A stretch of 64,000 nucleotides of DNA from a virus. Position numbers and translations under genes: made by a program. Of the stretch, positions 3,516 to 53,765 are shown one piece after another. The notes under the pieces are model-generated. The model worked only from the letters and a program-made list of their open reading frames with translations. It was not told the origin of the DNA and did no database searches. Location of the stretch: IMG/VR virus record IMGVR_UViG_3300045988_174992. The stretch is one strand, 5' to 3'. The number at the start of each line of letters is the position of its first letter. Position 1 is the first letter of the stretch.

Positions 3516-3550
3516 TTGGCTCGATCTTAAGATCGAGCCAATATTGTTTT
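3516..3550. terminator. bidirectional hairpin terminator
   Basis: Perfect palindrome TTGGCTCGATC-TTAA-GATCGAGCCAA (3516..3541) plus a T-run, between convergent genes. Confidence 0.7.
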
Positions 3551-4361
3551 AAGTAGTATAATAATTAACATTATATATACAATTATTATATGTAGATGTA
3601 ATAGTTTTATTTTTTGTGCCTGGGCCATCTATACTACAACCGTCTGGAATACTATAATTTCCGTAATTTGTTGTATATTTAAAATTAGGGGTTTCGTATC
3701 CATTCCATGTTAAACTGGTTAGTTCAAAATCAATTATAACAGAAGAATTATTGTCAATATATACTTTAATATGTGTATTTATAACATCTTGTCTTAATAA
3801 ATCATATACAGGAATTGGCATTTGGGCGTCATGGCTTTCTATCTGTCCACATACAGAAATATCATGACCATCTCCTGTTACCCAAATTCCACAATTAATA
3901 TTATAAGTACCAGTATTATCTACATAAGTATATTTATAATATGCAGGATTTAATCCTAATTTAGGATAATATGATGCTATAATTAAAGCATAGGAAATGT
4001 TACTTATTTGTGATTCATCTATTTTTTCCCAAGTATAACAAGAATCAGTATCTCCCTTTAAGTAATAATTTTCATAATTATTTCCATTTGATTCACTTGT
4101 TAAATGATGACTAATATATGAAGAATAAGGAGTAGACAATATTATACCACCAGGATCAGAAATATAAGTTGAATCTTGAATAAAGAAAGATGTCAATATT
4201 AATCCTGTTACATTTTTTGAATTTACATCTGAAACACTAATTGAATTATCAATATGTGGTGTTGTAAGAAATCTTCTAACATATATACTATTATTAGTAC
4301 CAGTATCGCTTTCATATTTCTTCATACTACCACTCTGAGTGTAGCATATTCCTGTAGCCAT
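3549..4361 (-). CDS. hypothetical protein (N/S/T/Y-rich)
   Basis: 270-aa ORF ending at the shared terminator. No motif recognised. Confidence 0.6.
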   Translation of the reverse strand: MATGICYTQSGSMKKYESDTGTNNSIYVRRFLTTPHIDNSISVSDVNSKNVTGLILTSFFIQDSTYISDPGGIILSTPYSSYISHHLTSESNGNNYENYYLKGDTDSCYTWEKIDESQISNISYALIIASYYPKLGLNPAYYKYTYVDNTGTYNINCGIWVTGDGHDISVCGQIESHDAQMPIPVYDLLRQDVINTHIKVYIDNNSSVIIDFELTSLTWNGYETPNFKYTTNYGNYSIPDGCSIDGPGTKNKTITSTYNNCIYNVNYYTT

Positions 4362-4431: not shown

Positions 4432-4697
4432 CACCCAATACCATCTCCACTTGAGATGAATTGGTAAGTGTTAAGTTGTTCATGACTAATTCATTATTTC
4501 TTTTTTAAAGAAAGCGTCAGAGTGATATAATGAAATAGCTACAAATCAATTATCGTGTACTCTGACGCTTTTAAGTCACCACTATGATATATTTTGTAAA
4601 CATCATTAATTTCTTACTGAATATTATTAATTACATATAAATTTTTATATCTAATTATTTTACTACCAATTCATCTCAAGTGGAGATGGTATTGGTG
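4432..4697. repeat. 266-bp element bounded by 35/34-bp inverted repeats with an internal 12-bp hairpin
   Basis: 4432..4466 CACCCAATACCATCTCCACTTGAGATGAATTGGTA is the reverse complement of 4664..4697 apart from one extra C. Inner stem AAGCGTCAGAGT (4512..4523) pairs with ACTCTGACGCTT (4559..4570). Confidence 0.8.
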
Positions 4698-4788: not shown

Positions 4789-5991
4789 TTATTTAATTCT
4801 ATATTTAGCACCTATGATAGCATTAGCTGCAGCAAATGAACCAGTCATCTTCATCATTCTATCTTTCCAAGTGAATACAATACCTTCTGTAGAATTCAAC
4901 TTGTTTCCAAGTTTTTGAAGTCTTAACAATTGATCCTTAAGCTTATCTTTGTCTTCTTGAGTACCTTTCTCATCAACAAGCTTCTTAGTGGCTTCTATCT
5001 CATTCTTCAAATTGATTATTGCTTTGTCTTTGACTCCATCATTAATCAAACCAGATGTAAGTTCAATTACTTTATTTGACATATCTAAGAACAGGTCATC
5101 AATTGGTTCGATAACATCTTTAACATATTTCTTATAATCTTTCTTATCTATAGAAACAATTTCATCAGCATGTTCAGGGTAGCTCTTCTTCAATATTCTT
5201 ATATTTACACTCTTATCTGAATTGAACCATCGGTTGAAGAATGCATCCTTTTCAGTCATCCATTCTGGTGCTATAATTTCAAAACGTTTCTTTTTCCAAT
5301 CTTCTATAGTAGCATCTTTTCCTAAACCTTCAGATTTGAATAAGTCAATAACTTTCTTTTTATATTCATTAGCAAACTTATTGCTGTCTTTAGTAACTTG
5401 AATAATTATATTAGGTGTAAGCTTGGCTTTGTCATCCTTTTCTATAGCCTTTTGAATAATACCAAGTCCATCTTTGGTAACACTATCCTTTTTCCATTCA
5501 TCACCTTCTTTCTTATATACCCAAATATTATGGAAGTCAACCTGATCATCATCATAATACATGATATTAGTAGTACCTGATACTATACATTCACAGTTTA
5601 CTAACAATCTTGTATTAGGATCAGGATTGAAGAATTTGCTACCAATTCTTTTGAATATCTTTTCAAGTGTATTACCAGCAGATACAAATGCTTTTTGAAC
5701 GGTTGGTTTGTCTTTCCATTTTTCAATCATATCTTGGATAGTCATACCTCCACGTTCTGAATTCAAGTCACCTTTGTTTCTTATAAAAACTACTTCATCC
5801 TGATTATTCATAGATGCTTGTATGTTAGTACCATCTAATTTCTCTGTAGCATTAGATATCTTACCTCCAAACAAATCATCTATCAAATCAAGTAAATCTT
5901 GGCAGGTGAAGTCAGTTTCATCAATTACATGCATCATGTGACCACTAGCTCCACCTTCAAAGATTTGTACATATTGAGTTAAATTAATCAT
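4789..5991 (-). CDS. nucleotidyltransferase-superfamily ligase-like protein (RNA/DNA ligase candidate) with CTS-like leader
   Basis: TEKLDGTN looks like the KxDG adenylylation motif I. C-terminal EGIVF..MKMTG looks like motifs IV/V. N-terminus is MINLTQYVQIFE|GG. Confidence 0.45.
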   Translation of the reverse strand: MINLTQYVQIFEGGASGHMMHVIDETDFTCQDLLDLIDDLFGGKISNATEKLDGTNIQASMNNQDEVVFIRNKGDLNSERGGMTIQDMIEKWKDKPTVQKAFVSAGNTLEKIFKRIGSKFFNPDPNTRLLVNCECIVSGTTNIMYYDDDQVDFHNIWVYKKEGDEWKKDSVTKDGLGIIQKAIEKDDKAKLTPNIIIQVTKDSNKFANEYKKKVIDLFKSEGLGKDATIEDWKKKRFEIIAPEWMTEKDAFFNRWFNSDKSVNIRILKKSYPEHADEIVSIDKKDYKKYVKDVIEPIDDLFLDMSNKVIELTSGLINDGVKDKAIINLKNEIEATKKLVDEKGTQEDKDKLKDQLLRLQKLGNKLNSTEGIVFTWKDRMMKMTGSFAAANAIIGAKYRIK

Positions 5992-7538
5992 TTCTTAGAT
6001 TTGTTGTGTTTTAATTTTATAGACAAACTAGCATTTAATGGATTAGGAATAGATAATCCACCAACATCAAATGTCCATTTACTTACACCAGAGCTTACAA
6101 CTTCTAGAATCATTTTATTCTTTCTGATTCCAAAGTATACTTGTTTCATATCTACTGCTTTATGAATAATTGATGAAATAACATCCTCATTTTCAGACCC
6201 GTATTCTTCATTTATTTCTTTTATGCATATAGCCCATAATGGATATATAAAGAAACCATATTTAAGCTTAGGTTGATTTTCAGTATTAATTTTATCCCAA
6301 TCATACTTATTCAATAAATGAGATGTATCATTGTATCCTATTGCTTTGTATACTTCTTCAAAAAATTCTTTTGGGTTATCACCAACTATAGAATCTAAAA
6401 TTTCATTTATTTTAGAAAAATCTACTTTTGAATGCTTTTCATTTGCAAGATTTTTAAATTTCTTAAATGCTTCATTATTAGAAAGATATTTATCTACAAC
6501 ATATTTCTGTATTAGTGAATTTTTTTGATCGAATACAGACATACTATATGAGATAGCAATATTATTGATAAACTCTATTTCTTTATAGTCATACATTGCT
6601 TTTTTCTCTTTCTTATTCATCTGATCTTTTTCTTTCTTAAGATCATCAAGTTCATTTTCAACATTCTTTTTTAAGTTTGCAACAGTTTTAAGCATCAAAT
6701 CTTTACCAGCTGGTTTACCACCACCACCAAGTTGTTTAGCAGATACTTTATAACCATTAATATAGTAATCTATCAAAGGTTCATTAGAAACTGTAGGAAA
6801 AACTACCTTACAATCATTAAACAATCTAAAGAACAGGAATGGACCTAAAATTTCACCAAAGTCCTTTTCAATACAAGCAATGTCACCATTTTCTATGGGT
6901 TCAATATATTTCTTAATACTTGATAAATCTAATTCAATTCTGCCTTCAGAAGAAGTGTTGAAGAAATCATCTACAGTTCCTTCTTTAAATGATCCTTCTC
7001 TCTTTAAACTTCCATCATTCAATATATCAATTAACTTATCACAACATTTAACTATTTCTGGATGTTTTTCTTTTAATGAAGCTAAACCTCTATTTACCGC
7101 ATCCTTTAATTGTTTTCTATTATCAAAAGTATTTGATGATTCTGTTAGAACAAGAACTTTGTCAGGAGACAAATCTTTATTATGTAAAGTTTGTTTATCT
7201 TGTGTCTTATTAGCCACATAATAAACTTCATCGTTATAAGTAATTTTATAAGATTTATAAGTACCAGATGCTCCTTTTGATCTACCTACTACTTCAGAAT
7301 CATCATCTGATATAGATACACCTCTTGTGTCTTTAAATGCATCTTTCAAAAATTCTTTATTGGCATCTTCATCTGTACCCATTTCAAAACGCCCAACCTC
7401 CATAGGATCTTTATCCGCTGTTTTAAAATCAATATTATGTGAAACACAATATTTCTTTAAAATAGCTCTAAGATACGACTTATCTTTATTCGAAGACTTT
7501 CCTTCAAATATATCTACATAGTTTTCTAATGACTGCAT
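5988..7538 (-). CDS. hypothetical 516-aa protein with CTS-like leader
   Basis: N-terminus MQSLENYVDIFE|GK. 4-nt overlap with the downstream gene. GGGGKPAGK loop. No family recognised. Confidence 0.7.
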   Translation of the reverse strand: MQSLENYVDIFEGKSSNKDKSYLRAILKKYCVSHNIDFKTADKDPMEVGRFEMGTDEDANKEFLKDAFKDTRGVSISDDDSEVVGRSKGASGTYKSYKITYNDEVYYVANKTQDKQTLHNKDLSPDKVLVLTESSNTFDNRKQLKDAVNRGLASLKEKHPEIVKCCDKLIDILNDGSLKREGSFKEGTVDDFFNTSSEGRIELDLSSIKKYIEPIENGDIACIEKDFGEILGPFLFFRLFNDCKVVFPTVSNEPLIDYYINGYKVSAKQLGGGGKPAGKDLMLKTVANLKKNVENELDDLKKEKDQMNKKEKKAMYDYKEIEFINNIAISYSMSVFDQKNSLIQKYVVDKYLSNNEAFKKFKNLANEKHSKVDFSKINEILDSIVGDNPKEFFEEVYKAIGYNDTSHLLNKYDWDKINTENQPKLKYGFFIYPLWAICIKEINEEYGSENEDVISSIIHKAVDMKQVYFGIRKNKMILEVVSSGVSKWTFDVGGLSIPNPLNASLSIKLKHNKSKK

Positions 7539-7541
7539 AAA

Positions 7542-8150
7542 TCAATCAATATCAAATAAATTATCATTTTCTACATAACTTCCAAGTGAACAAAATGCAT
7601 CTTCATTCACTTTACTAAGTTCTTCTTTAAATTCATTAAACAACTTCTGTGCACCATCAGGCATCATCTTAACAAAAGCTGCCTTATCATCATCTTTGAT
7701 AGCTTGTCTAACTTTAGTAGCTGATATACCATCTACGGCAGAACTTGTTTCATCTCTTTCAATAACAAATACTTTGAAATCATCAGGAAAGTCCTTCAAA
7801 TATTTCTTATTGCTGGCCATTGATTTATACATCTTTTCTCTATCAGTACCACAACCCCAAAGATGGGCAGAATATCCTTTTTTAGCTAATTCTTCTCCTA
7901 TCTTATCTATAGCAGCATTTTTTACCCAAATAATATCTTGATAGAAATCTTTACTTCTCAGACAAGTATCTATTTCTTTCTTTATTAAATCATCAGAAAA
8001 TGGGTGTTTAGAATCAAATTTAGTGTTATGAATAAGACATAACACTGTTGGGTACCCATTTTCTTTATATAATGCTTCAAGAATTGATTGGTGACCTAAA
8101 GTAAATGGTTGGGTACGTCCAACCATTATATTGACATCTTTCTTCTCCAT
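7542..8150 (-). CDS. nicotinamide/nicotinate mononucleotide adenylyltransferase (NadM/NadR-type cytidylyltransferase fold)
   Basis: GRTQPFTLGH resembles the GRFQPFHxGH motif. C-terminal ISATKVRQ resembles ISSTxxR. Confidence 0.7.
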   Translation of the reverse strand: MEKKDVNIMVGRTQPFTLGHQSILEALYKENGYPTVLCLIHNTKFDSKHPFSDDLIKKEIDTCLRSKDFYQDIIWVKNAAIDKIGEELAKKGYSAHLWGCGTDREKMYKSMASNKKYLKDFPDDFKVFVIERDETSSAVDGISATKVRQAIKDDDKAAFVKMMPDGAQKLFNEFKEELSKVNEDAFCSLGSYVENDNLFDID

Positions 8151-10582: not shown

Positions 10583-10614
10583 ATAATATAGAACTTTTTA
10601 AGTAAATTTCAAAA
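10583..10614 (-). promoter_or_regulatory. phage promoter, TTTGAAAT / TTCTATATT class
   Basis: Reverse complement reads TTTGAAAT-N13-TTCTATATTAT. Upstream of 10033..10554, directly after a terminator. Confidence 0.6.
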
Positions 10615-20105: not shown

Positions 20106-20140
20106 AATAATTTAATATTCTACATTTATTTAACATAATT

Positions 20141-20169
20141 AATATAGAAAAGTTGAATTAAAATTCAAA
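20141..20169 (-). promoter_or_regulatory. phage promoter (proximal of a tandem pair)
   Basis: Reverse complement reads TTTGAATT-N12-TTCTATATT. Confidence 0.5.
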
Positions 20170-20196
20170 CTTTTATTTCCTGTTAACTTTAGTTAA

Positions 20197-20225
20197 CATA
20201 TAGAACAATCTTCTAAAATTTCAAA
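20197..20225 (-). promoter_or_regulatory. phage promoter (distal of a tandem pair)
   Basis: Reverse complement reads TTTGAAAT-N12-TTCTATATG. Confidence 0.5.
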
Positions 20226-20250
20226 CTATAATTTCTTAATTTCAATATTT

Positions 20251-22628: not shown

Positions 22629-22657
22629 AATATAGAACAATCTTTCAGGATTTCAAA
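22629..22657 (-). promoter_or_regulatory. phage promoter, TTTGAAAT / TTCTATATT class
   Basis: Reverse complement reads TTTGAAAT-N12-TTCTATATT. Confidence 0.6.
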
Positions 22658-22671
22658 ATATATTCAAAAAT

Positions 22672-23979
22672 TTATTCAGCTGCCTTAATATTTATTCGTT
22701 CTTTTATTCTCTTCAGAATCTGAACTGTTGGTTCAATCTGCTCAATAATCTCATCCATAGGCTTGTATGCCATAGGAGACTCATCTAATGTTGACTTGTT
22801 GACAGAAGTTGAACAAACATCCTTCATTTCTTCGACAAATTCATCCATAGAAAGATTTGCCTTAGCAGCAGAACGTGACATCAATCGACCGGCACCATGA
22901 GGAGCAGTACAATTCCATTCAGCATTTCCTTTACCTACACAAATCAATACACCATCTCGCATATTGATAGGAATCACAAGTTCACGTCCATAAGCGGCAT
23001 TGACAGATCCTTTACGAATAATCATATCGTCAAAGTCAATGTAGTTATGCATTGTATTGATGACACGTGCCATAGAAGCACCTTTGACAATCTTAGTATA
23101 GATTTCTGTCATCTTATCCGAAATAAGCAAATGATTGTACTTGGCATAAGTCTGTGCAATTACCATATCAGTAAGATAGCCAATCAGATTCTTACCATTC
23201 AGATAGCCTGTTGGAACAGATGATACAAAGTCTTCCTTTGCATTCTTAATTCGCTCATTCCATTCTGACTTAGGATACATATCCTTTATCTTTTCAATAT
23301 GCTTTGCCCATTCAGAACTATCAACATGATAAGGCTTGTTTGCAACATTCATCCAGTACTTTGCTACCTTCAAACCAAAGTTGCGAGAACCACAATGTAT
23401 CATTATATATCCATTACCTTCGTCATCAGTATCATAAGACAAGAAATGATTGCCACCACCAGTAGTACCTAATGACTTCCAAAAAGTACCTTCATCCATA
23501 CCAATTCGGTTCAGCATATCGGAAATGTACTTTTCATTTACATTTACATTGTTTACAAAATTGGTTGTAGCAACAGCTCTGTCAATAGCAGTATTGCACA
23601 TCTTGTAAAACATCTTCTCATCAGCAATCTTCTTATCATAAATAGTGAATCCAGTAGGAATATCCTTCTTCCATCGATGTTCAAGCAATGCATAAGATTC
23701 CTCTGGACATGGCTTTGACATCTTGATGCAAGTTACCTGACAACCAATATCAACACCTACATGGCTTGGATTTACCATTGGATTATCCTTATCAATAGTA
23801 GAAGAGAAGCCAATTGTTATCGACTGCCCCAAGTGGATATCCGGCATTATTCGTATTTTCTGATCCTTGAATGCAGGACAGTCACAGATACTGTAAACCA
23901 TCTTCAATGCATCTTCTTCAACTGTCTTTGCAAAAATCTTGCAATCCTTATTGTACTTTCCAATTATATTGTATTCCAT
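22672..23979 (-). CDS. rtcB: RNA-splicing ligase RtcB (3'-phosphate/5'-hydroxyl RNA ligase)
   Basis: GVDIGC, GGGNHF, HCGSRNFG and APHGAGR motifs in RtcB order. 435 aa. Confidence 0.85.
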   Translation of the reverse strand: MEYNIIGKYNKDCKIFAKTVEEDALKMVYSICDCPAFKDQKIRIMPDIHLGQSITIGFSSTIDKDNPMVNPSHVGVDIGCQVTCIKMSKPCPEESYALLEHRWKKDIPTGFTIYDKKIADEKMFYKMCNTAIDRAVATTNFVNNVNVNEKYISDMLNRIGMDEGTFWKSLGTTGGGNHFLSYDTDDEGNGYIMIHCGSRNFGLKVAKYWMNVANKPYHVDSSEWAKHIEKIKDMYPKSEWNERIKNAKEDFVSSVPTGYLNGKNLIGYLTDMVIAQTYAKYNHLLISDKMTEIYTKIVKGASMARVINTMHNYIDFDDMIIRKGSVNAAYGRELVIPINMRDGVLICVGKGNAEWNCTAPHGAGRLMSRSAAKANLSMDEFVEEMKDVCSTSVNKSTLDESPMAYKPMDEIIEQIEPTVQILKRIKERINIKAAE

Positions 23980-24284: not shown

Positions 24285-24382
24285 AGGATTCACCTGCTAA
24301 GCGCCTGGATCACACAGGAAGCGGAAAAATATACTTCAGTATGTTCTATAAAAGGGACTCATTTGAGAGTCCCTGTGTGAAT
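24285..24382 (-). repeat. conserved helix-closed ~90-100-nt element, copy 1 (candidate ncRNA or miniature mobile element)
   Basis: The minus strand reads ATTCACACAGGGA...TTCCGCTTCCTGTGTGATCCAGGCGCTTAGCAGGTGAATCCT. TCACACAGG (24310..24318) pairs with CCTGTGTGA (24372..24380). Confidence 0.7.
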
Positions 24383-25180
24383 TTATTCCTCATTCAACTT
24401 GATGAATCTGATCTGGGTGAGGATAAACTTACCTTCATTTGTCTTTGCAATCTCCTTAAGCTTCTTGTCTACTTCTGGACGAGTTTCAGGAGTATTAGGA
24501 AGAGGTTCTGTCATCACCTTGATGAATTCACCTTTGCGAACTCCATCGGCTTCATCTTCTGAAACATTCTTCTTAATTACAACCAACTGAGTCTTGTCCT
24601 TTGTATCCATAACTGAAGTAAGAATCTTACCGTAAGCTGCTTCCTTGATGAGATTGTTACGGAGAATTCTGAGCTGCTGTTCTTCTGAAGAAAATGAATA
24701 CTCCTTATTGATTCTATAAAGGTTATCAACATTCTTGTGGCATGTATCTTCAAGTTCCTTAGCAAATTCCTTGTTGTTGATAATCATTGCAACAAACTCA
24801 TAGTACTTGAGAACTTTAGTACTTCTTTCATCAAGGTTGTTGATTCTTACATCACCATAAGAACTGATGTTCAAACGGAAATCCCACACCTTTTTATTGG
24901 TATCCCAATTGTATTCATAAGAAGGATAGATATCTAATTCATAGAAGCTGTTGTTATCTTCTGGTTTGAAAGTTACATGTCGATCAGTAGCAAGGTCAAC
25001 ATGGTACTCATCAATGTTGAACTTCTTCAAAATATCATTCACATCATTGATGTAGTTAGTAACAGCACTTGTATATTTCTCTGCTCCAACCTTGGTCAAT
25101 TCATTAATTTCATTCAAACGATTGTCAATTGACTCAACTGTTGTATACTTAGCTTTAACTTCTGCGTAGTTCATAATCAT
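24383..25180 (-). CDS. hypothetical protein
   Basis: 265-aa ORF, starts ATGATTATGAAC after promoter 25225..25253. Confidence 0.65.
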   Translation of the reverse strand: MIMNYAEVKAKYTTVESIDNRLNEINELTKVGAEKYTSAVTNYINDVNDILKKFNIDEYHVDLATDRHVTFKPEDNNSFYELDIYPSYEYNWDTNKKVWDFRLNISSYGDVRINNLDERSTKVLKYYEFVAMIINNKEFAKELEDTCHKNVDNLYRINKEYSFSSEEQQLRILRNNLIKEAAYGKILTSVMDTKDKTQLVVIKKNVSEDEADGVRKGEFIKVMTEPLPNTPETRPEVDKKLKEIAKTNEGKFILTQIRFIKLNEE

Positions 25181-30739: not shown

Positions 30740-32070
30740 AACTTTTAGAAAATTTTTATGATATTTCTATTTTTATAAATAATTGAAATTAATTTATATA
30801 AAATACTATATTAAATTATAAGATATAAATTTATTCCTAATATATGAAACTTAAGCTAACACAACAAATTATCATAGGGCAGAAGCATAAGAATTATGCT
30901 TCACTTGATATACTGTGTTGGCTTTCTAAGAATCTTTATAACCAAGCTTTGTATCAGATAAGACAGCAATATAGTAAAGACAAGACTTATCTTGGTTATT
31001 CTAAGCTATATAGACTATTATATGATACAAAGCAACCAGATTATTTTGCTTTACCATATACTCAATGTAGCCAGCAAATACTACGTTTAGTTGATAAAAC
31101 ATATACTTCATTCTTTAAAGGAATAAAGTCAGCTAAGAATAAAGGAAAGAAAGTCAGACTTCCTAAGTATAAAGATAAAGAAAATGGAAGGTATGTATTT
31201 GTATATACCAGTCAATGTATCAAGGTAAAGGATGGCATTCTAAGACTTAAAGTGAACAAGACTGATTTCATTTACTTTAATTGTGACAAGGAAGATGTAT
31301 GCCAAGTAAGAATAGTACCTAAAGGAAATCATATAGTAGTAGAAATAATATATCAAGTAGAATATGAACTGAAGAAAGATAATGGAAATTATGCTAGCAT
31401 AGATCTTGGAATTGACAATATAGTTACTTTAGCTTCTAACTCAGCTCAATCCGTTCTTTATAATGGAAGACCATTGAAAGCAATAAATCACTTTTACAAC
31501 AAGAGAAAAGCTGAGTTGCAATCTAAGGTAAAGACTAAGTCAACTAAGAGAATAAAGCGTTTGAATGGTAAGAGAAACAGAAAGGTAAAAGACTTCATGC
31601 ATAAGCTAAGTCATGCCATAGTATGTTACATGGAATCAAACAACATAAATACATTGATTGTAGGAAAGAATGTTGGTTGGAAAGACAGTATCAAGCTAGG
31701 GCATGTTGTAAATCAAAACTTTGTTTCAATACCATACAATATGCTAATACAGATGCTAGAGTATAAGTGTAAGCTAAAAGGTATCACATTCATTGTGGTA
31801 AATGAAGCATATACTTCAAAGTGTAGTTTCATGGACAATGAAAATATTTGCAAGCACAAAGTATATGCTGGATCTAGAATAAGAAGAGGATTGTTTGTAA
31901 CAAAGAATGGACTTAGACTAAATGCAGATATAAATGGAGCTTTGAATATAATGGTACTAGGTTGTACTAAGATAAATGTAAAACGTGATGCTCTAGTAAT
32001 AGAGCCAGCGAATATGAGGTTTGTAGTGAACCCAATTAGATTGACTTTAAGTCAATAGAATGAAATTTTA
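30740..32070 (+). mobile_element. TnpB-only IS200/IS605-like element (boundaries approximate)
   Basis: tnpB sits alone between the minus-strand promoter (30702..30730) and the first fibre gene. No tnpA seen. Ends not defined. Confidence 0.35.
30844..32058 (+). CDS. tnpB: TnpB (IS200/IS605-family OrfB, RNA-guided RuvC-like nuclease)
   Basis: RuvC triad in order: ASIDLGIDN (D), VVNEAYTSKCS (E), LNADINGALNI (D). 404 aa. The TSKCSF...RRGLF subtype lacks the second CxxC pair. Confidence 0.85.
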   Translation: MKLKLTQQIIIGQKHKNYASLDILCWLSKNLYNQALYQIRQQYSKDKTYLGYSKLYRLLYDTKQPDYFALPYTQCSQQILRLVDKTYTSFFKGIKSAKNKGKKVRLPKYKDKENGRYVFVYTSQCIKVKDGILRLKVNKTDFIYFNCDKEDVCQVRIVPKGNHIVVEIIYQVEYELKKDNGNYASIDLGIDNIVTLASNSAQSVLYNGRPLKAINHFYNKRKAELQSKVKTKSTKRIKRLNGKRNRKVKDFMHKLSHAIVCYMESNNINTLIVGKNVGWKDSIKLGHVVNQNFVSIPYNMLIQMLEYKCKLKGITFIVVNEAYTSKCSFMDNENICKHKVYAGSRIRRGLFVTKNGLRLNADINGALNIMVLGCTKINVKRDALVIEPANMRFVVNPIRLTLSQ

Positions 32071-35965: not shown

Positions 35966-36250
35966 ATGGCAAATACAACATTTCCTATTCATAAACTATT
36001 TAGAGTATATGAAACATTAGACCAGTTTGATGCAGAAGCAAATCACCCAGAAAATAAGATATGCTTCATCAAAGATAAGAGAATAATCTATGCTAATGGG
36101 GTTGAATATACCAATGAGCAGATGTATAATGATAATATAACTGATGATATCAAAGATGCTGCTAAATTCAAGACTGTTTATAATGCATTATTAGATGAAC
36201 TGAAGAACAGAAACTATATGGAGTTATCCAAAGATGGTGAAAATATTTAA
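35966..36250 (+). CDS. stand-alone fibre N-terminal adaptor module
   Basis: 94 aa. LFRVYETLDQFDAEANHPENKICFIKDKRIIYANGVEY matches the N-termini of the three LRR fibre genes but lacks an LRR part. Confidence 0.5.
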   Translation: MANTTFPIHKLFRVYETLDQFDAEANHPENKICFIKDKRIIYANGVEYTNEQMYNDNITDDIKDAAKFKTVYNALLDELKNRNYMELSKDGENI

Positions 36251-37433
36251 AAACTATGATACATTATCCCAATTCAATGATGAATCTATACACCCAGAAA
36301 ACAAGATATGTTTGATAAAAGATAAAGGTGTAATATATTCAAATGGTGTACAGTATTCACATTCTAAAATGCATATAATACAAGATATTGGAGATTCAGA
36401 TAACATAGTAGATAAGTTTAATGAATTGAGAAAAGGTTTATTAGAATCAAATCTAATGGCAGCTAGGACACCACATACTCTCATTTACTGGACAGGAGAT
36501 TCTAATACTATAGATATTAGTGGTACTACATATACAGCTGAACCAGATAAAGTAAACATAGATGGGGTAGAATACTACCAGTTAAAATTAGATAAAGATT
36601 TAAATAATAGTTTTAGTAATAATACTTTTACTAATTTAATATTTAAAGATGTTGATACAAGTAATGTTACTAATATGAATAATATGTTCGGTTATTGCAA
36701 TGCTCTTACTTCTTTGTATGTGTCTGAATTTGATACAAGTAATGTTACTAATATGGCTAATATGTTTTATTATTGCGAGGCTCTTACTTCTTTAGATGTA
36801 TCTAAATTTGATACAAGTAATGTTACTAATATGTTTAATATGTTTGGTAGATGCTGTGCTCTTACTTCTTTAGATGTATCTAAATTTGATACAAGTAAAG
36901 TTACTAATATGAGTAATATGTTCAATAATTGCAGTTCTCTTACTTCTTTGGATGTATCTAAATGGGATACAAGTAAAGTTACTGGTATGTATAGTATGTT
37001 TAATTATTGCATATCTATTACTTCTTTAGATGTATCTAAATTTGATACTAGTAAAGTTACTGATATGTCTAGTATGTTTCAACATTGCAGATTACTTACT
37101 TCTTTTGATGTGTCAAATTTTAATACAAGTAATGTTACTAATATGAATACTATGTTCTCTTCTTGCAGTGCTCTTACTTCTTTGGACGTATCTGGGTGGG
37201 ATACAAGTAATGTTATTTATATGGGTTATATGTTCAGGAATTGCTGGGCTCTTACTTCTTTGGACATATCTGGATGGGATACAAGTAATGTTACTAATAT
37301 GAATAGTATATTCTCTGGTTGCAGTTCTCTTAAAACAATAAGAATGGTAGGTTGTTCACAGACTACTATAGATAAGATAAAAGCACAACTATCTACAGAT
37401 GGTATAACTGGATGTACTATTGTAACAGAATAA
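36234..37433 (+). CDS. BspA/DUF285-type leucine-rich-repeat fibre (receptor-binding) protein, paralog 1
   Basis: About 10 repeats of F..C..LTSLDVS.FDTS.VTNM..MF. Conserved N-terminal module and a C-terminal module ending LKTIRMVGCSQTTIDKIKAQLSTDGITGCTIVTE. Confidence 0.7.
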   Translation: MVKIFKNYDTLSQFNDESIHPENKICLIKDKGVIYSNGVQYSHSKMHIIQDIGDSDNIVDKFNELRKGLLESNLMAARTPHTLIYWTGDSNTIDISGTTYTAEPDKVNIDGVEYYQLKLDKDLNNSFSNNTFTNLIFKDVDTSNVTNMNNMFGYCNALTSLYVSEFDTSNVTNMANMFYYCEALTSLDVSKFDTSNVTNMFNMFGRCCALTSLDVSKFDTSKVTNMSNMFNNCSSLTSLDVSKWDTSKVTGMYSMFNYCISITSLDVSKFDTSKVTDMSSMFQHCRLLTSFDVSNFNTSNVTNMNTMFSSCSALTSLDVSGWDTSNVIYMGYMFRNCWALTSLDISGWDTSNVTNMNSIFSGCSSLKTIRMVGCSQTTIDKIKAQLSTDGITGCTIVTE

Positions 37434-37470
37434 ATATAACAGAATAAAATTTTATATATAAAAAGAAATC

Positions 37471-38217
37471 ATGGCTAAATTATTTAGAAATTACAATACA
37501 TTGGTGGAATATGAAGCAGACACAAATAAACCTGTAAACACAGTTTGTTTCATTAAAGATGCAAAGGTCATCTATGTAGATGGCATACGATATTCATATA
37601 AGCAACTTGACTATCTACCACCTGCTATTAATGAAGCAGAAGCATTAGAATATATGGGTAAGATTATTAAGAATGCCCAGGAAGTAGGATTGATTGGTAT
37701 ACCAGTACCTAAACTAGTACCTGGTATATACTGGACAGGAGATTCTAATATTATAAGTATTAGTGGTACAGATTATACAGCTGAATCTGATAATATAACT
37801 ATAGATGGTGTAGAATACTATCAGTTAAAATTGGATAAAGATTTAGATAATGATTTTTACAACTTTAATTATAATTATTTTACTAATTTAATATTTAAAG
37901 ATGTTGATACAAGTAATGTTACTAATATGAGTAATATGTTCGAAGGTTGTTGGGATCTTACTTCTTTGGATGTTAGTAATTTTGATACAAGTAATGTTAC
38001 TGATATAGGATTTATGTTTAGTGATTGTGGTTCTCTTACTTCTTTAGATATGTCTGGATGGGATATAAGTAACGCCATCAAAATGAACAAAATGCTCACT
38101 GGTTGTAGTGCTCTTAAAACTATCAGAATGGTAGGTTGTTCACAGACTACTATAGATAAGATAAAAGCACAATTATCTACTGATGGTATAACTGGTTGCA
38201 CTATTGTAACAGAATAA
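37471..38217 (+). CDS. BspA/DUF285-type LRR fibre protein, paralog 2
   Basis: Same N- and C-terminal modules, with about 3 LRR units. Confidence 0.7.
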   Translation: MAKLFRNYNTLVEYEADTNKPVNTVCFIKDAKVIYVDGIRYSYKQLDYLPPAINEAEALEYMGKIIKNAQEVGLIGIPVPKLVPGIYWTGDSNIISISGTDYTAESDNITIDGVEYYQLKLDKDLDNDFYNFNYNYFTNLIFKDVDTSNVTNMSNMFEGCWDLTSLDVSNFDTSNVTDIGFMFSDCGSLTSLDMSGWDISNAIKMNKMLTGCSALKTIRMVGCSQTTIDKIKAQLSTDGITGCTIVTE

Positions 38218-38250
38218 ATTATAACAGAATAATTATAACAGAATAAAATC

Positions 38251-39225
38251 ATGCCGAAAATATTTAGAAACTACAATACATTATCTCAATTCAATACTGA
38301 ATCCACACATCCAGAAAACAAGATATGTTTCATTAAAGATAATGGAGTAATATATTCAAATGGTGTACAGTATTCACCTTATAAAATGGACACTATAGCT
38401 AATATAGAAGATTCAGATAACATAGTAGATAAGTTTAATGAATTGAGAAAAGGTTTATTAGAATCAAATCTAATGGAAGCTAGAACACTACATACTGTCA
38501 TATACTGGACTGGAGATTCTAATACTATAAACATTAGTGGTACTACATATACAGCTGAACTAGATAAAATAAATATAGATGGTGTAGTATACTATCAGTT
38601 AAAATTGTATAAAGATTTAGATAATAATTTTTATAAATTTAGTAATAATACTTTTGCTAATTTAATATTTAAAGATGTTGATACAAGTAAAGTAACTAAT
38701 ATGAATAATATGTTCCATTATTGCAATGCTCTTACTTCTTTGGATGTATCTAAATTTGATACTAGTAAAGTTACTAACATGTCATGGATGTTTGAATATT
38801 GCATGTCTCTTACTTCTTTAGATTTGAGTACATGGGATACTAGTAAGGTTACTAATATGAATGCTATGTTCCTTTATTGTAGTGCTCTTACTTCTTTGGA
38901 TTTGAGTGGATTTGATACTAGTAAAGTTACTGATATGAGTTTTATGTTCAGTAATTGCAGTTCTCTTACTTCTTTGGATTTGAGTGGATTTGATACTAGT
39001 AAAGTTACTGATATGAGTTTTATGTTCAGTAATTGCAGTTCTCTTACTTCTTTGGATTTGAGTGGATGGGATACAAGTAATGTTAATAATATGCGTAATA
39101 TGTTCAGTGGTTGTAGTGCTCTTAAAACAATCAGAATGGTAGGTTGTTTGCAGACTACTATAGATAAGATAAAAGCACAACTATCTAGTAATGGTATAAC
39201 TGGATGCACTATTGTAACAGAATAA
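38251..39225 (+). CDS. BspA/DUF285-type LRR fibre protein, paralog 3
   Basis: Same modules, about 6 LRR units including a perfect 78-bp tandem duplication. Confidence 0.7.
   Translation: MPKIFRNYNTLSQFNTESTHPENKICFIKDNGVIYSNGVQYSPYKMDTIANIEDSDNIVDKFNELRKGLLESNLMEARTLHTVIYWTGDSNTINISGTTYTAELDKINIDGVVYYQLKLYKDLDNNFYKFSNNTFANLIFKDVDTSKVTNMNNMFHYCNALTSLDVSKFDTSKVTNMSWMFEYCMSLTSLDLSTWDTSKVTNMNAMFLYCSALTSLDLSGFDTSKVTDMSFMFSNCSSLTSLDLSGFDTSKVTDMSFMFSNCSSLTSLDLSGWDTSNVNNMRNMFSGCSALKTIRMVGCLQTTIDKIKAQLSSNGITGCTIVTE
38887..39042 (+). repeat. perfect 2 x 78-bp tandem duplication (one LRR unit)
   Basis: 38887..38964 and 38965..39042 read identically, each encoding LTSLDLSGFDTSKVTDMSFMFSNCSS. Confidence 0.85.
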
Positions 39226-41181: not shown

Positions 41182-41270
41182 ATTCACACAGGGACGTTAA
41201 AATTATCTTAACTGATAGAATATACTGAAATATGTTATTCCGCTCCCTGTGTGACCCAGGCACATTCCTA
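41182..41270 (+). repeat. conserved helix-closed element, copy 2
   Basis: ATTCACACAGGGACG...TTCCGCTCCCTGTGTGACCCAGGCAC. Orientation is opposite to copy 1 relative to the flanking minus-strand genes. Confidence 0.7.
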
Positions 41271-41280
41271 TAGTTATTTT

Positions 41281-41739
41281 TCAAAAATGCTTAGCAAGTT
41301 CTGTATTTGAAAAGAACATCATATTGACACATTTAGCCATCCATTCAACTAAACCTTCATTACATGACTCTTCAAAATACTGACCAGATTCAAGCATGAT
41401 GTGAATACACTCATGTACAAATGTTTGCTTTATCTGTTCTGGTTTCAATGGCTTACCAGATGGAGTAGTCAATGACAAGTTGATTACCTGTTCTGATAAG
41501 TTGCTGTTACCAAAGATCCAGCAAGAAGTATCGTAATCAGAATATACTTTATCATGAAAACAAACATCAATGGTTTCACCAAACAAGTTGAACTGAAAAT
41601 CTTCATACTTCTTCTGTTTCTTCATATTTCTATTTGTATTAGTATTCTTTACATTATTGTTCTTTGAAGCTCTGCAAGGTTTGTTGAATATGATTTTCTC
41701 ATCAGGATTCAACACATCTTTTGCAAACTCAGTGTCCAT
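41281..41739 (-). CDS. putative zinc metallopeptidase (HExxH)
   Basis: FVHECIHIMLESG contains HExxH. 152 aa. Confidence 0.4.
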   Translation of the reverse strand: MDTEFAKDVLNPDEKIIFNKPCRASKNNNVKNTNTNRNMKKQKKYEDFQFNLFGETIDVCFHDKVYSDYDTSCWIFGNSNLSEQVINLSLTTPSGKPLKPEQIKQTFVHECIHIMLESGQYFEESCNEGLVEWMAKCVNMMFFSNTELAKHF

Positions 41740-52545: not shown

Positions 52546-52581
52546 AAAAATTAAATTGTTCTACATTATTTTAACATATCT

Positions 52582-52610
52582 AATATAGAAAAGTTGAATT
52601 AAAATTCAAA
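52582..52610 (-). promoter_or_regulatory. phage promoter (proximal of a tandem pair)
   Basis: Reverse complement reads TTTGAATT-N12-TTCTATATT. Confidence 0.5.
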
Positions 52611-52637
52611 CTTTTATTTCCTGTTAACTTTAGTTAA

Positions 52638-52666
52638 CATATAGAACAATCTTCTAAAATTTCAAA
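52638..52666 (-). promoter_or_regulatory. phage promoter (distal of a tandem pair)
   Basis: Reverse complement reads TTTGAAAT-N12-TTCTATATG. Confidence 0.5.
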
Positions 52667-53225
52667 ATATTGGCAAAAAAGTTTGGCCTAAATTGAATTT
52701 TATTGTATTAAGAAGCATTCTTGTATGTTGATATTGCTCTTCTTTAATATCAAACAATGAAATGCAATTTGACTCATCATCAAACAATTCTTGGATAGAC
52801 TTCCAGATAGCCGTTGCATGGTCAAAAGCCAAATCATCTTTCCTTAGACCTACCAATGATACCCATTGTACTGTTGATGCATCATCTTTTGCTTTTATCA
52901 AACCTTCAAAATCATCATGAACTGTATCAGCATATACAATAGAAATGCATCTTTCTCGTGGATCTCTTCCTTCTTTAGTAAGAGCACAAACTTGAAACAT
53001 ATAACTCAAGCTCAAGTTTGTCTCTTCCTTAAGTTCACGAATAGCGGCACTCATAGCAGATCTGTCTTCTGGATCTAAGAATCCACCAGGAAGAGCTAGC
53101 TTTCCTTTGAATGGTTCATTCTTACGAGTGATGAGCAACACCTTTGGATTATTTGGATCCTTTAAATTGAAAATCACGTTATCTACTGTAACTGCATAAT
53201 GTACGTATTCGTATGTATAACTCAT
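52662..53225 (-). CDS. Nudix hydrolase (ADP-ribose pyrophosphatase-like)
   Basis: Nudix box GGFLDPEDRSAMSAAIRELKEETNL. The track start at 53261 lies inside the promoter -10 box, so ATG 53225 (MSYTYEY) is preferred. Confidence 0.75.
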   Translation of the reverse strand: MSYTYEYVHYAVTVDNVIFNLKDPNNPKVLLITRKNEPFKGKLALPGGFLDPEDRSAMSAAIRELKEETNLSLSYMFQVCALTKEGRDPRERCISIVYADTVHDDFEGLIKAKDDASTVQWVSLVGLRKDDLAFDHATAIWKSIQELFDDESNCISLFDIKEEQYQHTRMLLNTIKFNLGQTFLPIF

Positions 53226-53249: not shown

Positions 53250-53278
53250 AATATAGAACAATTTTTAAAAATTTCAAA
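53250..53278 (-). promoter_or_regulatory. phage promoter, TTTGAAAT / TTCTATATT class
   Basis: Reverse complement reads TTTGAAAT-N12-TTCTATATT. Confidence 0.6.
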
Positions 53279-53305
53279 TAAATATCATTTTAGAATACAA
53301 AAAAT

Positions 53306-53403
53306 ATTCACACAGGTAGCGTAAAATTTTCTTAGGTTATAATTTATACTCCTAAACAATTTTCCGCTCCCTGTGTGACCCAGGCGCTTTACTAGTGAAT
53401 CCT
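53306..53403 (+). repeat. conserved helix-closed element, copy 3
   Basis: ATTCACACAGGTAGCG...TTCCGCTCCCTGTGTGACCCAGGCGCTTTACTAGTGAATCCT. Confidence 0.7.
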
Positions 53404-53414
53404 TCGCTTATATG

Positions 53415-53765
53415 CTATCGTATAGTCCTTTTAGTCAATCTATAAGTACCATCTTCATATTTGATTATCCTATAAAACGTCCAGTTGCTTGACTTCATCC
53501 ATCCATAAGTTGATATGTCTTTCTTTGATTCATATCCTCTCATAGGTGAATATACCCATTCTACAGGATATATTGCTAATGTATCAGCAATACATACACT
53601 ATCTATAAAATGACGATCAACTATTGTATCAAGTTCATATTGCATTGTTGTATTGTCAATTTCTTTTGGTGTACCACAAGACATGAAGAAGAATGACAAT
53701 ATAATAGCAAACATCAATATCCAAGTAATTACTGTAGCTTGCATTTGTGTGAGATTTCTTTTCAT
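53415..53765 (-). CDS. putative lipoprotein
   Basis: Signal-peptide-like N-terminus ending in the lipobox-like FFMSC|GTP. 116 aa. Confidence 0.5.
   Translation of the reverse strand: MKRNLTQMQATVITWILMFAIILSFFFMSCGTPKEIDNTTMQYELDTIVDRHFIDSVCIADTLAIYPVEWVYSPMRGYESKKDISTYGWMKSSNWTFYRIIKYEDGTYRLTKRTIR

Follow-up and report, generated by a model that had tools for sequence, protein, structure and literature searches.

The element at 53306-53403 and its neighbors

We analyzed a 64,000-nucleotide (nt) stretch of viral DNA (IMG/VR record IMGVR_UViG_3300045988_174992; hereafter the window) and, within it, a repeat element at positions 53306 to 53403 that lies between two minus-strand genes, an open reading frame (ORF) of 116 amino acids (aa; 53415-53765) and a Nudix gene (53225-52662). 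A reading made from the sequence only had described this element as the third copy of a conserved repeat, and an nhmmer profile built from relatives indeed finds exactly three copies in the window, at 24287-24382 on the plus strand (copy 1), 41270-41182 on the minus strand (copy 2), and 53401-53306 on the minus strand (copy 3). The E-values range from 7e-21 to 2e-24 (2.7e-24 for copy 3, which two alignments also place), and no 9-mer of the 28-nt box described below occurs elsewhere in the window. The three copies are flanked by minus-strand genes throughout, and we therefore take the minus strand to be the transcribed strand of copy 3.

Read from 53403 to 53306 on that strand, copy 3 presents a leader, a box, and a palindrome in the orientation common to the family. 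The TAG stop codon of the upstream ORF (53415-53417) is followed by 11 nt and then by a variable 5′ leader module (AGGATTCACTAGTA, 53390-53403, defined by comparison of copies and beginning AGGATTCAC in the gene-sense reading), an invariant GC-rich box of 28 nt (AAGCGCCTGGGTCACACAGGGAGCGGAA, 53362-53389), an AT-rich inner hairpin, the 3′ arm CGCTACCTGTGTGAAT, a single A, the run TTTTTT, and a promoter. The 3′ half of the box is at the same time the 5′ arm of a closing helix, and the helix together with its interior makes up an imperfect palindrome of 69 nt (53309-53377) with the conserved apex AGTATA. On the plus strand the arms are 13 nt each, CACACAGGTAGCG at 53309-53321 pairing with CGCTCCCTGTGTG at 53365-53377, and the tail CCAGGCGCTTTACTAGTGAATCCT extends to 53403. 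The GCG/CGC extension of this helix, which had been drawn across a 2-nt internal loop, is present; the loop is a single 1x1 mismatch between 8 bp and a further 4 bp (AGCG/CGCT). The U-run of the transcript (UUUUUU, 53299-53304, minus strand) follows the last paired base of the helix, the A at 53308. The predicted fold of the minus strand has a free energy of -34.2 kcal/mol (z = -4.3, with 0 of 200 shuffles as good) and that of the plus strand -31.6 kcal/mol (z = -6.0). A stable stem-loop thus lies at a gene end on the transcribed strand of copy 3, as it does in an intrinsic terminator.

What the sequence-only reading described is confirmed and its interpretation is supported in part; some of its geometric claims have to be revised. 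Copy 3 had been assigned to the plus strand; it is oriented like copy 2 and inverted relative to copy 1, and it is the minus strand that gives the functional sequence. What had been called a 3′ tail common to copies 1 and 3 is actually the 5′ leader, and the two sequences match at 16 of 20 positions, not exactly. All three copies do lie 0 to 11 nt 3′ of a minus-strand stop codon, as had been proposed, but the end that faces the stop differs, being the leader/box side in copies 2 and 3 and the helix side in copy 1. Copy 2 (41182-41270) starts 10 nt past the stop of the ORF at 41281-41739 and is followed by a weak T-run, with the next ORF beginning approximately 29 nt later. Copy 1 (24285-24382, plus strand) is antisense to the flanking minus-strand genes and abuts the stop codon at 24383-24385. 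Its interior holds a canonical terminator in gene sense (24348-24373, minus strand; GGGACTC-TCAAAT-GAGTCCC and then TTTTAT), which is retained in orthologues.

The promoter proposed at 53250-53278 is confirmed as a promoter-like site of sigma-70/Bacteroidota type, TTGAAA-16-TATATT, at 53277-53250 on the minus strand. It lies 22 nt beyond the U-run and 25 nt upstream of the ATG of the Nudix gene, which it would drive. The site is one instance of a repeat, TTTGAAAT-N12-TTCTATAT, that matches the window 24 times compared with 5.9 expected, and the repeat presumably also fits the Bacteroidota pattern TTTG-N19-TAnnTT. Contact with a promoter holds at copy 3 and does not extend to the family, in which inspection of the tails places a promoter, beginning 22 to 32 nt beyond the helix, at about 5 of the 11 site types defined below. 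As a separate observation, TTTGAAAT-N12-TTCTATAT(TAT) recurs in strongly conserved form on the minus strand upstream of ORFs at approximately 16 or more window sites (for example, 10586-10613, 20198-20225, 22630-22657, 52639-52666, and 53251-53278) and, when translated, gives spurious N-terminal extensions such as MFYIIFEQKII. Two tandem promoter-like repeats lie within a 112-nt duplication (20118-20229 and 52559-52670) whose copies are 96% identical.

A dispersed repeat family of human-gut jumbo phages

Judged by its sequence and distribution, the family is a dispersed, palindromic, and clade-specific repeat of human-gut jumbo phages, in which it occupies the 3′ ends of roughly a dozen genes unrelated to one another. 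It is confined to one clade of such phages, of 167 to 294 kb, and to one unrelated gut contig, L091. An exact-word scan of IMG/VR with the box returned 36 loci, all on eight contigs of 167 to 294 kb from one metagenome, and a looser word returned 50 loci on the same eight contigs only. A metagenome scan returned 65 loci, including contigs labelled human gut and a contig of 294,491 bp with 11 matches. The fetched loci, 1.18 Mb in total, contain 151 non-overlapping copies, and 1.06 Mb of loci searched before had yielded 137, of which 99 were distinct. The sequence-only reading had made its proposal hinge on conservation outside this genome, and relatives hold about 150 copies, spread over the eight IMG/VR contigs, human-gut metagenome contigs, and the one unrelated contig.

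Among 185,579 bacterial and archaeal species genomes, the 21-nt core of the element occurs only in two metagenome-assembled genomes (MAGs) labelled Romboutsia. The contigs concerned have the same phage flanks and are for that reason attributed to mis-binned phage DNA. These MAGs, which are GTDB species representatives of “uncultured Romboutsia sp.” (CALFLM01 and CALESE01; our loci L042-L055), hold many contigs of this jumbo phage, probably through binning contamination. GenBank phages gave no match to the region or to the element. Rfam covariance models run over the whole window gave nothing at gathering scores, and over the element they gave generic hairpin (miRNA) matches with E > 0.01 only.

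Every copy lies downstream of the 3′ end of some gene. Grouping by flanks yields approximately 11 fixed site types per genome. In nine of them the element has the same sense as the gene before it, and in two, the copy 1 site and a further one, it is antisense. Most sense copies begin 0 to 12 nt past the stop codon. The genes upstream of the nine sense site types belong to nine unrelated families, and we therefore reject the idea that the element was carried along with paralogous upstream genes. With a copy at the end of about a dozen transcription units in each genome, the family offers a ready handle for operon mapping.

The most constrained part of the element is the 28-nt box, to which the sequence-only reading had given no separate attention, and not the helix. 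Within site types, identity is 0.92 to 0.97 in the box and 0.89 to 0.99 in the 3′ arm, both above the 180-nt coding flank (0.77 to 0.93), and the center (0.77 to 0.90) is similar to the flank or below it. The box is essentially invariant in alignment, it is kept in the unrelated contig L091, and few decayed versions turned up, though the profile could detect them via the rest of the element. RNAalifold predicts a single consensus structure, a small hairpin in the box, GC.CCUG[GGUCACA]CAGG..GC, in which a C-to-U variant gives a G.U pair in 4 sequences. This small hairpin overlaps the 5′ arm of the closing helix, and the two structures are mutually exclusive.

The length of the palindrome is also fixed. 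Of 69 distinct copies, 67 span 69 nt and two span 68 nt when measured from the first base of CACACAGG to the last base of CCTGTGTG, and the terminal inverted repeats of the palindrome have 13-bp arms that reach 18 bp of perfect pairing in L006. Inside these arms, two interchangeable versions of the interior are found around the conserved apex: one, present in copy 3, is a single long hairpin whose variants show clear compensatory differences (e.g., AAAATGGTCGAGA/TCTCGACCATTTT in L036), and the other is a three-way junction with a GAATATGC-TTCA-GTATATTC hairpin. The leader falls into two allele classes, ..TCCAGG.. and ..CCCTGT.., either of which could make a small 5′ hairpin, the former by pairing with CCTGGG of the box and the latter by pairing with an upstream ACAGGG. 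Leader alleles and center variants are reassorted among orthologous sites of different genomes, which points to sequence exchange between copies. At the copy 3 site, L004 and L012 have, in place of the downstream promoter, a paralogue of the promoter that lies near 40.9 kb in the window.

A second repeat, which we call element B, adjoins the element at some sites and is absent from the window. Its 39-nt unit (TAACTTTAGTTCTTGAACAGAACTGAAAGAGATGTTCAT) stands directly after the element in L006, L016, L018, L020, L024, and L035 and before it in L009, L027, L032, and L034. In L029 (approximately 1925-2005), two tandem units, with TA on either side, come right after GTGTGAA. Neither the window nor L001 has them there, which makes this a true presence/absence difference.

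Transcript ends and competing explanations

We see about an even chance that the element is a factor-independent terminator, a protective hairpin at the RNA 3′ end, or both, closing the upstream transcription unit and forming a terminator-promoter cassette at copy 3. According to this model, minus-strand transcription of the upstream gene would continue through the element, and the RNA would form two structures there, the small 5′ hairpin and a long hairpin closed by CACACAGGGAGCG/CGCUACCUGUGUG; the long hairpin and the U-run behind it would then terminate or protect the upstream transcript. At copy 3, the promoter 22 nt further on would restart transcription for the Nudix gene. The copies would swap sequence with one another by recombination. 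The box, situated immediately ahead of the 5′ arm and partly coinciding with it, probably serves as recognition site for a trans-acting factor that modulates termination, processing, or stability.

Several features of the family are consistent with a role at transcript ends. A run of at least four T's lies within 10 nt past the helix in 27 of 37 distinct arm-plus-tail combinations, compared with 5.9% at random positions, and at several sites GUGUGAC is immediately followed by UUUUU. The interior of the antisense copy 1 has been remodelled into the canonical gene-sense terminator that orthologues keep, which suggests that termination is selected at these sites. Variable positions of the helix show more G.U pairs (10 cells) than A.C mismatches (2 cells in register), and the fold of the common strand is more stable than that of the complement in 79 of 99 distinct copies, by a mean of 3.7 kcal/mol. 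The contact with a promoter noted by the sequence-only reading, which also raised an effect on read-through as something to test, is borne out in layout at copy 3, where the hairpin and the U-run stand directly upstream of the promoter and fit a terminator-promoter cassette.

Other observations weigh against the transcript-end interpretation. The strand asymmetry is seen at antisense sites as well and is thus largely inherited from shared sequence, so that it is not independent evidence at each site. The closing helix is 89% paired, a value that shuffles equal; one pair is changed on both sides, covariation is not significant, and the attempt to prove the helix by covariation failed on too little variation. 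The description of the element as helix-closed therefore holds for the presence of the arms and not for covariation, and it meets a helix that is broken at one site type and a box more constrained than the helix. A simple terminator scan made no call at copy 3, because the loop exceeds the limit of the scan, and the U-run there starts 3 nt past the stem. Three site types (copy 1, copy 2, and those with element B behind the element) have an intact helix but no U-run. One site type, situated between convergent genes, has a broken 3′ arm (CCCTGACACA) and, after it, a separate, ordinary bidirectional terminator, and two site types are antisense. Finally, a plain terminator requires neither a 28-nt invariant box nor a fixed length of 69 nt.

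The element might instead act as DNA only, as a selfish or linker repeat (like a MITE or REPIN, or like the recombination linkers of T4-like phages discussed below) that would spread horizontally, be homogenized by gene conversion, and have no RNA function of its own. The box could in that case be a site for a recombinase, a transposase, or a regulator, as in the stoperators of mycobacteriophages. We regard this explanation as possible and somewhat unlikely. It would account for a body that is a near-perfect 69-bp palindrome with terminal inverted repeats of 13 to 18 bp and for modules reassorted among copies, and it draws on the history of the element. Contig L091 (14.8 kb) has near-absent DNA similarity to the clade, its DNA matches being a BspA-type repeat stretch (70 to 84% identical to 37.0-38.8 kb of the window) and three element copies only; these copies are 80 to 86% identical over 65 to 85 nt, and the protein matches are short tblastx stretches of 24 to 56% identity. 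Two direct copies in L091 bracket an HNH homing-endonuclease gene (NUMOD4 + HNH_3; 808-1422), and the third lies approximately 100 nt downstream of a large serine recombinase gene (6119-7678). They keep the leader, box, and apex, and their 3′ arm is not conserved. We conclude that the element has at some time passed between phages that are not related, and that in the clade it is now fixed and under constraint. It is not ancestral: a 148-kb relative, whose RtcB is 80% identical, retains the gene order (193 aa - 263 aa - small ORF - RtcB) but has 17 nt in place of copy 1 and no box anywhere. One site has a 480-bp ORF indel right beside the element, the only adjacent indel seen. Within the clade, however, more than 1,300 comparisons of orthologous flanks revealed no empty site, so the element is not currently moving there and recent transposition is rejected. 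No target-site duplication could be defined, the sole empty site being that of the distant relative, in which the neighboring sequence is different. TnpB aside, protein scans found no transposase, recombinase, or HNH gene near any clade copy or in the window, and the scanned ORFs of the window (47 of at least 120 aa, plus others) include no RAYT (Y1 transposase). Selection acting on RNA is indicated by the enrichment of U-runs, by the G.U pattern, and by the biased orientation relative to transcription, and conservation above that of the coding flanks argues for function and not for mere recency.

Three further explanations invoke RNA, and a fourth a dedicated reader of the element. In a regulated attenuator, a phage protein that stabilizes the small box hairpin would prevent the terminator from forming and let transcription into the next genes at a set time of infection, in the manner of a RAT-type antiterminator or of λ N and boxB. 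The box hairpin is the only consensus structure and overlaps the 5′ arm, the invariance of the box calls for a sequence-specific partner, and at two site types the next ORF begins 25 to 32 nt past the helix with no promoter between, so that its expression would need read-through. This is nevertheless quite unlikely, given that the small hairpin has 6 bp and is far weaker than the closing helix of 12 to 13 bp, with an open loop that offers a toehold to the 3′ arm. In addition, about half of the copies pair CCUGG of the box with the leader (CCAGG), which frees the helix; antisense copies exist; and protein scans of the window yielded no candidate RNA-binding antiterminator. Known RAT/terminator pairs (BglG/SacY/LicT) and λ nut boxB likewise place a small conserved hairpin over or beside a terminator, with a protein partner that decides on read-through, as would be the case here, but they sit in leaders and not at gene ends, no sequence similarity to them or cognate protein was found for the element, and its alternative hairpin is much weaker than the terminator. 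Translation-coupled attenuation of the trp type (1:2/3:4 pairing among the leader, CCUGG, CAGGG, and the 3′ arm) was rejected as a separate idea because the antiterminator pairing is far weaker; it survives only as a form of the regulated attenuator. RNase III sites occur between genes of T7, and λ sib is a further example. A comparable double-strand processing site, at which a hairpin of approximately 30 bp would be cut to set the half-life of the upstream message, strikes us as improbable. Copy 3 and other copies with a single long hairpin do form a nearly continuous helix of about 30 bp, the intergenic placement resembles that of the T7 R sites, and a hairpin that works in both orientations would accommodate the antisense copies. 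About half of the copies, however, form a three-way junction in which the closing helix has 12 bp only, and processing leaves the single-stranded part of the invariant box and the U-run enrichment unexplained. An independently expressed small RNA, for example a decoy against host defense or a mimic of a CRISPR repeat made from many copies per genome, would suit the high copy number and the invariant box, and presence in unrelated phages fits a transferable accessory function; one antisense site even has a perfect TATAAT just upstream and a T-run after it. We consider it very improbable all the same, as there is no consistent upstream promoter, most copies begin directly behind a stop codon, Rfam holds no match, and the exact core is absent from the species genomes except on the mis-binned phage contigs, so no host CRISPR array or host repeat carries it. 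It is rather unlikely, too, that the box and the fixed-length hairpin constitute a new, horizontally transferred cis-acting RNA or DNA module with a dedicated trans-acting reader, gained independently by unrelated gut Bacteroidota phages for the advantage it gives; such a module might be a phage-timed switch of antitermination or processing, or a decoy for host defense or for an RNA-binding protein.

Further identities were considered and rejected. ARAGORN found no tRNA or tmRNA, and known RNA families (twister, hammerhead, pistol, hatchet, riboswitches, and Y RNA) gave no match in Rfam. The exact-match absence of the core from bacterial genomes led us to reject a host CRISPR repeat, a host REP, and an RNA anti-CRISPR mimic. 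A small ORF within the element was dismissed because most variants have no start codon in register, and an independent gene with its own promoter because no consistent -35/-10 or -33/-7 pair lies upstream and most copies begin 0 to 12 nt past a stop. We found no rationale for an inverton: the copy 3 center matches its orthologue in L013 at 36 of 53 positions forward and 34 of 53 reversed (hand count), a comparison that is uninformative because the center is itself palindromic. An integron attC site would require the R''/R' core sites (RYYYAAC ... GTTRRRY) in that order and an integron integrase; only some leaders contain GTTAAGC, which stands on the wrong side, and the window scans found no integrase. 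The flanks of TnpB, the one transposase-like gene in the window and thus its only candidate for a cognate transposase, have no similarity to the element, and a link to TnpB or its guide RNA was rejected; so was an association with homing-endonuclease or recombinase genes in the clade, where none was found, such genes adjoining the element in L091 only.

Known repeats and other features of the window

Almost no regulatory elements have been described in uncultured gut jumbo phages. In layout, the element looks like the PeSLs (promoter-early stem-loops) of T4-like phages, and in form and probable origin it looks like REP/REPIN or Correia repeats; by these comparisons it is a member of neither group. 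PeSLs are composite terminator/promoter repeats that also serve as recombination points (Comeau, Arbiol, Krisch; PMC4122927, PMC2839356). The element shares with them its standing as a conserved intergenic repeat with many copies per genome of a large T4-related myovirus, the stem-loop directly before a sigma-70-type promoter (at copy 3, and at about 5 of the 11 site types), and signs of sequence exchange between copies, and the L091 gene bracketed by two direct copies matches the mini-circle picture of PeSLs. PeSL stem-loops, on the other hand, are short and simple (A3-4G3-loop-C3T3-4), whereas the element combines a 69-nt palindrome with a 28-nt box and a leader and has a promoter at some sites only. 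PeSL copies lie at the borders of genes inserted, deleted, or replaced between close relatives, a pattern that the 480-bp indel, the promoter swap at copy 3, and the bracketed HNH gene recall; in more than 1,300 comparisons the clade sites are nevertheless fixed and not clustered at indels.

REP, BIME, and REPIN repeats and the Correia elements of Neisseria affect termination, RNA stability, and RNase III processing. Like them, the element is approximately 100 nt long, has terminal inverted repeats and a long hairpin, lies after genes or within transcription units, and comes in mosaic variants. It differs in that it resides in a lytic-type jumbo phage and not in a bacterial chromosome (its core being absent from the bacterial genomes searched), in that neither a RAYT or other transposase nor a TA duplication was seen, and in its one-sided invariant box outside the palindrome. 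With MITEs it has terminal inverted repeats in common, and not target-site duplication, filled/empty polymorphism, or a cognate transposase. An intrinsic terminator would likewise place a GC-containing stem and then a U-run at a gene end, co-oriented with the upstream gene, but the hairpin of the element is very long with an AT-rich interior, an extra conserved box precedes it, the copies are extremely similar in sequence, and some sites lack the U-run. Stoperators are hairpin-free repressor sites of 13 bp in temperate phages and probably act on the elongating polymerase. Those of the cluster A mycobacteriophages L5 and Bxb1 resemble the element in that one asymmetric, conserved sequence recurs many times in short gaps between genes, with a bias in orientation relative to transcription; the putative binding site of the element, in contrast, is embedded in a palindrome.

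The element goes beyond the routine in being a module of invariant sequence and fixed length whose conservation exceeds that of the surrounding genes and which also occurs in an unrelated gut contig. The conservation of the box above the neighboring genes and its presence in that contig point to either a specific binding partner or an element mobile from phage to phage. Either would add to the short list of phage-borne dispersed repeats, such as PeSLs and stoperators, and would bear on modular exchange in large phage genomes. If the family were only a set of terminators homogenized by recombination, it would make a useful annotation and no surprise.

The proteins encoded in the window include a T4-type neck protein, a family B DNA polymerase, a lysozyme, a sigma-70 region 2 protein, RtcB, and TnpB. 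The closest cultured relatives of the neck protein are jumbo phages of Bacteroidota hosts, namely, PAU, Tenacibaculum phages PTm1 and pT24, and Chryseobacterium phages. RNA repair or turnover genes are represented by the RtcB ligase (22672-23979), the Nudix hydrolase (52662-53225), which has a weak match to a decapping-enzyme-like family, and an RNA_ligase-family ORF; two of the three adjoin element copies, possibly by coincidence. The TnpB gene (30844-32058, plus strand), with OrfB_IS605 and Cas12f1-like TNB domains, is on the strand opposite to most of its neighbors. Between the minus-strand ORFs at 3549-4361 and 4789-5991, a perfect 32-bp inverted repeat (4435-4466 and 4664-4695) surrounds 197 bp that contain an 11-bp stem, AGCGTCAGAGT/ACTCTGACGCT, and the whole segment from 4435 to 4695 resembles an invertible segment or a large cruciform. 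Three neighboring ORFs at 36234-39225 encode DUF285/BspA leucine-rich repeats with a 78-nt periodic repeat, and a similar repeat is found in L091.

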